Of a DNA stretch of 64,000 nt, positions 47,060 to 47,716 are shown one piece after another. The notes beneath the pieces were generated by a model, which did no database searches, had not been told where the DNA came from, and saw nothing but the letters and a program-made list of their open reading frames with translations. Made by a program: the position numbers and the translations under genes. The stretch is from assembly GCA_000146465.1 (NCBI GenBank), contig CP001949.1; one strand, written 5' to 3'. Each line of letters starts with the position of its first letter. Position 1 is the stretch's first letter.

Positions 47060-47716
47060 TCAATCCCTAGCAGATGATATATTATCTTCGCTTCCTTCGC
47101 TATCGACCAACTCGGAATCAATGAGATTGGATTTTTTCTTTTCCTTCTTATCTGAAGGCTTCCCCCCTTTCTTTTCTTCAGGATTTCCTCCTTCATCCCC
47201 TCCCTTGTTTCCCTTTCCATCGCCTTTGTCTTGGTCTTTTGGCTTTTCGCTGGCACCAGAATTTTTATCTTTAGAGTCCTTTCCGTCCTTTCCATCCTTT
47301 CCCTTTTTGCCATCATCTTCTTTTGGTTCTTCCATTGAGCTACTATTGTTTCCACTCCAGAGTTTAGAGCGATGAGTAAGAGAAGAAGAGTTTCCATCCT
47401 TGCCACCCTTCCCATCTTTCTTTCCATCCTTGTCACCTTTCTTTCCATCCTTCTCGTCCTTGCCATCTTTCTTTCCATCCTTCTCGTCCTTCTTTCCATT
47501 CTTGTCATCTTTATTTCCATCCTTCTCGTCCTTGCCATCTTTCTTCCCGTCCTTGTCATCACCGTTCCCATCTTTGACATTAGAAGAAGATAGACTTGAT
47601 TGTCTTAGACGGTGTCTTCTCAAATTTGTTAGGTTTGAGCCATGATGCCCAATTCCATGTATCCTTTTAAGGGCCTTTGCCATGAGAAGTCCTGAGACAA
47701 GTATTAGCTTCTTCAT
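47060..47716 (-). CDS. Secreted Lys/Asp/Gly tandem-repeat protein
   Basis: Signal peptide MKKLILVSGLLMAKA, then about 110 aa of DGKKDGKDEKDGNKDDKNGKKDEKDGKKDGKDEKDGKK repeats. These are encoded by degenerate 18/36-nt DNA repeats at about 47395-47580. Confidence 0.55.
   Translation of the reverse strand: MKKLILVSGLLMAKALKRIHGIGHHGSNLTNLRRHRLRQSSLSSSNVKDGNGDDKDGKKDGKDEKDGNKDDKNGKKDEKDGKKDGKDEKDGKKGDKDGKKDGKGGKDGNSSSLTHRSKLWSGNNSSSMEEPKEDDGKKGKDGKDGKDSKDKNSGASEKPKDQDKGDGKGNKGGDEGGNPEEKKGGKPSDKKEKKKSNLIDSELVDSEGSEDNISSARD

Follow-up and report, generated by a model that had tools for sequence, protein, structure and literature searches.

The stretch of DNA analysed in this study (the window) covers 64,000 nucleotides (nt) of chromosome VIII of Encephalitozoon intestinalis (assembly GCA_000146465.1, contig CP001949.1; strain ATCC 50506 for the neighbouring Nse4 gene), which agrees with the microsporidian source proposed by a first-pass annotation made from the letters alone. 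The gene considered here lies on the minus strand at 47060-47716 and encodes a small lysine-rich protein with tandem repeats. Its complete coding sequence (CDS) starts with ATG at 47716 and stops with TGA at 47062-47060, giving 218 amino acids (aa) plus the stop; the exact 218-aa product has been called on four E. intestinalis contigs, and syntenic orthologues exist in related species. A probable polyadenylation signal, AATAAA, could be read on the same strand at 47050-47055, 4 nt past the stop. The upstream neighbour is Nse4 (Eint_081770, ADM12109.2) and the downstream neighbour a CDK-type kinase (ADM12107.1). Because these two accessions flank the gene, it is most likely Eint_081760 (ADM12108), an identity that follows from accession order, neighbouring tags and gene count. 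Counting tags back from Nse4 puts Eint_081680 at 39344-40048, adjoining a RicinB_lectin_2 gene at 40166-40768, so the tag numbering fits.

In E. romaleae, E. hellem, E. cuniculi (L004:4948-5676) and four contigs (L005, L006, L007 and L012) found among those derived from the Sequence Read Archive, Nse4 and the kinase are likewise separated by an open reading frame (ORF) of 216-259 aa. Of these, L005 is Encephalitozoon-like; L006, L007 and L012 (ERR13636775) are more distant, with Nse4 proteins 48-53% identical. In alignments A1 and A3, the N-terminal, central SSSLTxHSS and C-terminal SNL[IL]DSE peptides are kept, whereas the charged middle is hypervariable. The length of every orthologous CDS is a multiple of 3, no frame but the target's is open over its whole length in every species, and differences within codons 1-36 show a third-position excess (78, 58 and 128 at codon positions 1, 2 and 3). 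Synteny, conserved termini, this third-position bias, a conserved promoter and the AATAAA signal thus establish that the locus is a genuine protein-coding gene, confined to Encephalitozoon and close relatives, and the minus-strand ORF of the first-pass annotation is real. The protein evolves fast, with dN of 0.31-0.68 compared with 0.03-0.24 for Nse4, the kinase and TBCC, and with an apparent dN/dS of 0.2-0.5 in which dS is saturated.

Several other frames are also open across the locus. The plus-strand ORFs at 47121-47375, 47372-47593 and 47400-47645 have low-complexity translations rich in F, S, P and L, and antisense stop-free runs of 84-188 codons occur in every orthologue. Such frames are explained by the purine-rich sense strand (61-70% purine), and the same composition effect is held responsible for a same-strand +1 ORF at 47041-47580. 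The plus-strand ORFs are therefore a composition artefact present in every orthologue, as had been supposed.

Beyond the syntenic set, gene order around the target is broken in Cucumispora (L010) and in a JGI contig (L009). In L011 (SRR25018380), from a distant microsporidian, a 164-aa K/S-rich ORF at 3432-3926 adjoins an Nse4 that is 29% identical. This ORF has a hydrophobic stretch at its N-terminus and contains NLIDSLSSD internally, and it may represent a strongly diverged member of the family, with homology unproven. The target matched no Pfam family at E <= 0.1. A word-indexed search of 5.8 billion proteins returned no homologue, being saturated by 8000 low-complexity candidates, and an exhaustive HMMER search of 1.84 billion representatives gave 0 matches, the query itself included. 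Since the exact sequences of the target and its orthologues are absent from the collection, these empty searches tell little about the range of the family.

The protein contains 22% K, 16% G, 15% D and 11% S, with a grand average of hydropathy (GRAVY) of -1.84, and its orthologues are similar (K 18-22%, Gly 8-16%, GRAVY -1.52 to -1.84). Cysteine is absent from the target and from the five Encephalitozoon orthologues counted, and none is visible in the L007 translation. A common plan is conserved, in which a signal-peptide-like start leads into a cationic block, followed by a near-neutral Lys/Asp/Glu/Gly/Ser spacer and finally an anionic tail, and the predicted mature chains have an isoelectric point (pI) of 9.0-9.4 and a mass of 21.4-24.7 kDa.

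The N-terminus, MKKLILVSGLLMAKA (residues 1-15; 47672-47716, -), shows the n/h/c pattern of a signal peptide, with MKK, then 10 uncharged hydrophobic residues (mean Kyte-Doolittle hydropathy 2.64), then A-K-A, which places A or V at -3 and A at -1. All eight orthologues (8/8) share MKK or MRR, a hydrophobic core of 10-14 residues and A/V-x-A before residue 16-18. No transmembrane-grade segment was detected, as the maximum 19-residue hydropathy is 1.32 in the target and 0.9-1.3 across the orthologues, and the polar, acidic C-terminus of the target carries neither a hydrophobic stretch nor K/HDEL. The signal peptide of the first-pass annotation is thus supported by heuristics (charge, hydropathy and the -3/-1 residues), by which an n-region, an h-region, suitable -3/-1 residues and no further transmembrane segment were all found.

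Directly behind it lies the cationic block (residues 16-48; 47573-47671, -), which in E. intestinalis has no acidic residue, a net charge of +7 and 4 His. The sequence KRxHGxGHHxSxLxNLKKHH..RSNLSS is conserved among the named species, and in five Encephalitozoon sequences the block spans 33-38 aa with a net charge of +7 to +10 and 4-6 His; that of L007 is shorter (18 aa, +5, no His). At the opposite end, the anionic block SNLIDSELVDSEGSEDNISSARD (residues 196-218; 47063-47131, -; net -6) has counterparts of 17-23 aa, net -4 to -6, in six complete orthologues, each starting SNL[IL]DSE. Between the two blocks, the spacer of 145-209 aa is well mixed with a net charge of about 0 (K+R about equal to D+E), and its composition is conserved but its sequence and length are not. 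It includes the tandem array described below, the Ser-rich motif SSSLTHRS (residues 110-117; 47366-47389, -), in which S111, L113 and S117 are invariant in alignment A1, and a second K/D/E/G-rich polyampholyte region (residues 132-195; 47132-47323, -) with little tandem structure.

Three smaller ideas about the chain were dropped. A Cardin-Weintraub heparin-binding motif, XBBXBX (LKRIHG), directly after the putative cleavage site was not accepted as a defining feature, being retained in 4/6 orthologues and missing from E. cuniculi and L007. In the tail, ESSNLL read as an acidic di-leucine motif is not conserved in E. intestinalis or E. cuniculi (alignments A1 and A3, by eye), and it would be moot because the protein would be lumenal. 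Lys-richness would not hide the protein from standard proteomics, as 8-12 tryptic peptides of 7-30 aa give 52-66% coverage.

The high charge and probable disorder proposed for the protein in the first-pass annotation were borne out. In six mature chains the fraction of charged residues is 0.37-0.49, the net charge per residue +0.02 to +0.04 and kappa (charge mixing) 0.11-0.20, and 6/6 fall on the disordered side of the Uversky charge-hydropathy boundary. AlphaFold2, run on the single sequence, gave no confident fold (mean predicted local distance difference test score 52, predicted template modelling score 0.18), with helices at 3-19 and 27-38 only. All the marks of an intrinsically disordered strong polyampholyte were thus found, namely a charge fraction above about 0.35, a net charge of about 0, low hydropathy and no fold.

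An imperfect tandem array of KDG/KDE/KDD-type units occupies residues ~48-108 (47390-47580, -), as seen by autocorrelation and by Tandem Repeats Finder (TRF), which delimited it at 47391-47580. The best TRF row has a period of 72 nt (2.2 copies, 88% matches, score 242), with sub-periods of 21, 30, 42 and 51 nt, and the 72-nt (24-aa) unit is composed of 21- and 30-nt subunits. Copy 1, KDGKKDGKDEKDGNKDDKNGKKDE, lies at 47554-47483 and copy 2, KDGKKDGKDEKDGKKGDKDGKKDG, at 47482-47411, differing at 8/72 bases, and a partial copy follows at 47410-47390. DNA autocorrelation reaches 0.68 at lag 21, 0.68 at 30, 0.72 at 51 and 0.78 at 72, compared with 0.46 at 18 and 0.29 at 36. The array goes beyond chance, because codon shuffles never reach the observed value (0.73 at lag 72 in the shuffle test, against a maximum of 0.63 over 500 shuffles); likewise, the tripeptide KDG is present 12 times, whereas shuffles gave it 1.2 times on average and never more than 5. 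The existence of the array, as first reported, is confirmed, but its period is 21/30/51/72 nt rather than 18/36 nt, and it codes for about 61 residues (48-108) rather than about 110. Residues 132-195 are of low complexity with short repeats only, such as (GKD)3 (9 nt x 3 at 47276-47302) and 24 nt x 2 at 47145-47193.

KDG is found 0-2 times in the other species, compared with 12 in E. intestinalis, and the DNA of other species' orthologues has small repeats only, for instance 15 nt x 2.9 in E. cuniculi. A separate array at L012:3854-3974 (12 nt x 10.1 or 36 nt x 3.4) encodes (KEGK)n at the position equivalent to the KDG array. The KDG array is therefore specific to E. intestinalis and (KEGK)n has expanded independently in the L012 lineage. 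Since different units have expanded in different lineages, the composition of the spacer is held while its sequence is rebuilt repeatedly, through replication slippage or unequal exchange. Within E. intestinalis, no copy-number variation was seen among the four contigs, which encode an identical protein; between GCA_051312795.1 and the window there are 2 substitutions in 10,657 bases, at 47294 and 49354, without gaps or length change, and that at 47294 is synonymous and falls in the second charged region of the CDS. The expectation of a strain-polymorphic repeat number was thus not upheld, and assembly collapse or artefact is unlikely, as the 190-nt array is identical in four assemblies.

Upstream of the gene, alignment A2 (7 taxa) displays a TATA-like box, GTATAAATAC, at 47736-47745 (-), ~28 nt before the ATG, and a further element, TGAAACATGTTTT, at 47754-47766 (-), ~49 nt before the ATG, which contains the perfect 10-bp palindrome AAACATGTTT. 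Despite silent-site saturation between species, TGAAACATGTTTT is near-invariant in the 7 taxa and is probably a cis-regulatory site, judging from sequence comparison. To our knowledge, no microsporidian motif described so far corresponds to TGAAACATGTTTT or AAACATGTTT. The exact GAAACATGTTT occurs once in the window, at the target promoter, and two further GAAAC copies lie more upstream in most species. GAAAC-N0-3-GTTT shows no excess in the window (5 matches, 2.9 expected), and the hexamer TGAAAC is under-represented in the whole window (29 against 49 +/- 7 expected from shuffles); as there is no such enrichment, it is conservation that argues for the element. A similar inverted element, TGAAACTGTTTC, is present at 40817-40828, 59 nt before the ATG of the ricin-B-lectin gene at 40166-40768 (-), and is followed by tataatataa, which hints at a cis-element that late genes may share. 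An in-frame upstream extension (MKHVLES...INMKK; window 47717-47767, L005:4917-4967, L006:4914-4967) appears in the ORF listing with a GTG start and in the automatic gene calls of two assemblies; it is conserved promoter rather than coding sequence, because an upstream ATG is found in some species only.

For comparison of expression, we take ECU06_0250, ECU06_0240, ECU11_1440, ECU10_1660, ECU01_0820 and ECU01_1270 to be PTP1, PTP2, PTP3, SWP1, EnP1 and EnP2 of E. cuniculi, and ECU01_0460 and ECU04_1100 are presumably actin and EF-1alpha. Fragment counts scaled per kilobase and per million mapped reads (FPKM) at 24, 48 and 72 h post infection were taken from an E. cuniculi study (Grisdale, 2013; PMC3629993, Additional file 1). 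ECU08_1810 is the probable orthologue of the target and, by gene count, would be the CDS at 194992-195720 of GenBank AL590448. The table passes directly from ECU08_1790 to ECU08_1810 without ECU08_1800, and the seven genes from the orthologue to a proteasome subunit match tags 1810-1870; ECU08_1780, L6e by position, is expressed at a level like that of a ribosomal protein. This assignment is preferred because the alternative would give Nse4 5,600 FPKM and the proteasome subunit 19 FPKM.

Transcripts of ECU08_1810 rise 4.9-5.1x (1117/5445/5658 FPKM), nearly in parallel with PTP2 (607/2672/2939; 4.4-4.9x) and PTP1 (660/2522/2683), and increases were also recorded for PTP3 (201/519/574), SWP1 (8505/22259/22703; 2.6x), EnP1 (9119/24265/23714) and EnP2 (5148/14157/14515) (PMC3629993). 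The kinase ECU08_1790 (80/81/83) and ECU08_1820 (107/87/88) are flat (PMC3629993). At 48-72 h, ECU08_1810 exceeds ECU01_0460 and ECU04_1100. It appears, with the tags mapped as above, that the gene is induced together with the PTP and SWP genes.

The lysine-rich PTP2-like class suggested by the first-pass annotation was examined against the published description of PTP2. The two share a signal-peptide-type start, Lys-richness, a basic pI, a mature size of 21-25 kDa and an acidic C-terminal end (PMC7493173), and their induction in E. cuniculi is nearly identical. A basic pI, high Lys and a size near 30 kDa, as expected of PTP2, were counted as present (pI 9.0-9.4, K 18-22%, 21.4-24.7 kDa). Nevertheless, PTP2 has conserved Cys and the target has none, and the target is set apart as a polyampholyte with balanced acidic and basic residues, a distinction made on such traits rather than by sequence alignment. 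Clustering of ptp1 and ptp2 is a conserved PTP2 trait (PMC7493173), and the target lies outside that cluster, which is on chromosome VI (PTP1 Eint_060150, PTP2 Eint_060140). Lacking cysteines and at the wrong locus, the target is not a member of PTP2.

PTP1 and SWP1/SWP2 are secretory spore proteins whose central or C-terminal low-complexity tandem repeats differ between species. They resemble the target in being co-induced at 48 h in E. cuniculi, but PTP1 is Pro-rich and acidic, whereas the target is K/D/E/G-rich and neutral to basic. SWP1/SWP2 combine a Cys-containing N-terminal domain with Gly/Ser-rich repeats of 12-15 aa; the target, without Cys and with K/D/G/E repeats, was rejected as an SWP1/SWP2 type on this description and not by direct sequence comparison. 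The lack of repeat-number variation among the four E. intestinalis assemblies is a further difference from PTP1 and SWP1/SWP2.

NbPTP6 of Nosema bombycis offered another lead, as it is His/Ser-rich with a 16-aa signal peptide, and its E. intestinalis orthologue is Eint_081680, a ricin-B-lectin protein (PMC7493173). The target shares the short signal peptide, the His/Ser-rich segments and a length of ~220-250 aa (PMC7493173), and Eint_081680 lies eight genes away in the same window. The target was dismissed as PTP6 or as a ricin-B-lectin PTP4-PTP6 paralogue, since Eint_081680 is the orthologue and the target has neither a Pfam match nor a predicted fold. As a side observation, the adjacent small genes at 39344-40048 (-) and 40166-40768 (-) both have signal-peptide-like starts; the second matches RicinB_lectin_2, and the first, Eint_081680 by tag count, had no Pfam match at E <= 0.01.

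Our preferred interpretation, for which we see about even chances, is that the gene encodes an abundant secretory protein, induced at sporogony, which is a disordered polyampholyte deposited in an extracytoplasmic compartment of the spore. The N-terminus would direct the protein into the endoplasmic reticulum, with cleavage after Ala15, and the destination of the ~22-kDa mature chain during sporogony would be the vacuole matrix, the spore wall, or the polar tube or polaroplast. In that compartment it could serve as a hydrated charged filler or linker, whose oppositely charged ends may bind anionic and cationic partners or one another, head to tail. The ricin-B-lectin proteins encoded in the window have comparably short N-terminal hydrophobic starts, and the N-terminal 40 residues of E. 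intestinalis proteins belonging to this class drove secretion of GFP (PMC11972355). The spore-wall or polar-tube role voiced in the first-pass annotation is thus upheld indirectly, through co-induction of the probable E. cuniculi orthologue with the PTP and SWP genes, though not in the form of PTP2-like membership. The same study counted 28 late-stage secreted proteins without an assigned role (PMC11972355), and the target is best filed as a lineage-restricted addition to the secreted low-complexity proteins of the microsporidian spore stage, an uncharacterised candidate component of the spore or invasion apparatus.

Several points weigh against this interpretation. The signal-peptide status is a heuristic judgement, the basic residues K14, K17 and R18 flank the putative cleavage site, and the first 48 residues, free of acidic residues, resemble other targeting peptides too. 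Low AlphaFold2 confidence from one sequence argues only weakly for disorder. The expression data come from E. cuniculi rather than E. intestinalis and concern an orthologue identified by gene count and not by annotation, and the time course cannot separate polar tube, spore wall and secreted effector. Literature look-ups found no localisation, proteomic or secretion data for the protein in any species, and no mention of the locus tags of the target and its orthologues (E. intestinalis, E. cuniculi, E. hellem and E. romaleae) in paper texts.

Secretion could instead serve the host side. An effector released into the parasitophorous vacuole or host cell, which would not be a structural spore component and whose Lys-rich chain would target the nucleus or bind cytoskeleton or membranes, is judged unlikely. 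Exported Plasmodium proteins use Lys-rich repeats to target the red-cell periphery, which counts for this idea, and KAHRP and GARP likewise combine a secretory entry signal and a His/basic segment with Lys-rich tandem repeats of lineage-specific length; both are unrelated in organism and sequence, and the target has no export motif and no evidence of host targeting. The signal-peptide-like N-terminus is compatible with such a role, and the fast evolution (dN 2-10x that of the neighbours) and lineage-specific repeats are typical of host-exposed proteins. EnP1, a spore-wall protein of Encephalitozoon, is reported to be active in the host nucleus (PMC11348272), and for this reason effector and spore roles need not exclude each other. 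However, induction tracks PTP1 and PTP2 at the onset of sporogony and not early infection, a net charge near zero leaves no classical basic nuclear localisation cluster, and host-side evidence was not found.

Hydrophilins, such as LEA proteins and dehydrins, are defined by Gly above 6% and high hydrophilicity. The target falls within this compositional definition (Gly 8-16%, GRAVY -1.5 to -1.8), and its disorder and its very high transcript abundance during spore formation, on entry into the dormant stage, would suit a bulk stress protectant that shields membranes and proteins of the dormant spore from desiccation. Even so, we regard this function as very improbable, as the protein lacks a K-segment and any Dehydrin or LEA profile match (Pfam, E <= 0.1), its secretory-type N-terminus would place it outside the cytosol, and the conservation of its oppositely charged end blocks points to specific binding partners.

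A comparably slight probability is given to the idea that the protein is not secreted, residues 1-48 serving to target it to mitosome or nucleolus or to anchor it in a membrane, and the K/D/E-rich body resembling the acidic-basic proteins of nucleolus or chromatin. No acidic residue precedes position 49-54 in Encephalitozoon, 6-7 K/R and 4-6 His fall within residues 16-45, the putative cleavage site is surrounded by basic residues, and the single-cell RNA sequencing paper states that SignalP does poorly on E. intestinalis proteins. Against these stand the uninterrupted hydrophobic core of 10-14 residues after MKK/MRR and the small -3/-1 residues in all orthologues, the co-induction with secretory spore proteins, and, for an anchor, a core that is too short (maximum 19-residue hydropathy 0.9-1.3). 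Finally, the notion of no gene at all, but a chance frame in purine-rich DNA, a true product on the other strand or an array made by assembly, could appeal to the several open frames on both strands and the two empty searches, yet it is effectively refuted already by the single end-to-end open frame with its conserved start, N- and C-terminal peptides in all orthologues, the matching third-position bias and promoter, the identity of four assemblies, the transcription of the probable E. cuniculi orthologue at >5000 FPKM and the absence of these sequences from the searched libraries.

If the spore-stage secretory interpretation is carried further, the protein could be a major matrix component, so far unrecognised, of the polar tube or polaroplast, or of the endospore. 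Its conserved design of cationic head, neutral polyampholyte spacer and anionic tail would drive electrostatic assembly with itself, head to tail, into a hydrated gel or condensate. Through His protonation and ionic screening, this gel would respond to the shifts in pH and ions that trigger germination, with the TGAAACATGTTTT palindrome belonging to a shared sporogony promoter code. This is speculative and we think it quite unlikely; the shared code is proposed because of the similar TGAAACTGTTTC upstream of the ricin-B-lectin gene.

The microsporidian spore wall and invasion apparatus have few known structural proteins. Should the tag assignment be right, transcripts of the E. cuniculi counterpart are twice as abundant as those of PTP1 and PTP2, with the same induction, which would make the gene a high-priority and readily testable candidate in human-infecting Encephalitozoon. 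Lineage restriction together with species-divergent repeats suggests a possible marker for species typing or serology. The family is also a clean example of a charge layout that is conserved where sequence is not, while tandem repeats turn over independently, and the upstream palindrome may provide a handle on sporogony-specific transcription, a little-known subject.

Elsewhere in the window, frame 3 of the plus strand is open for 2479 codons over ~56560-64000, corresponding to a very large gene that leaves the 3' edge, and the strong positive GC skew over the same interval agrees with a very large plus-strand gene.

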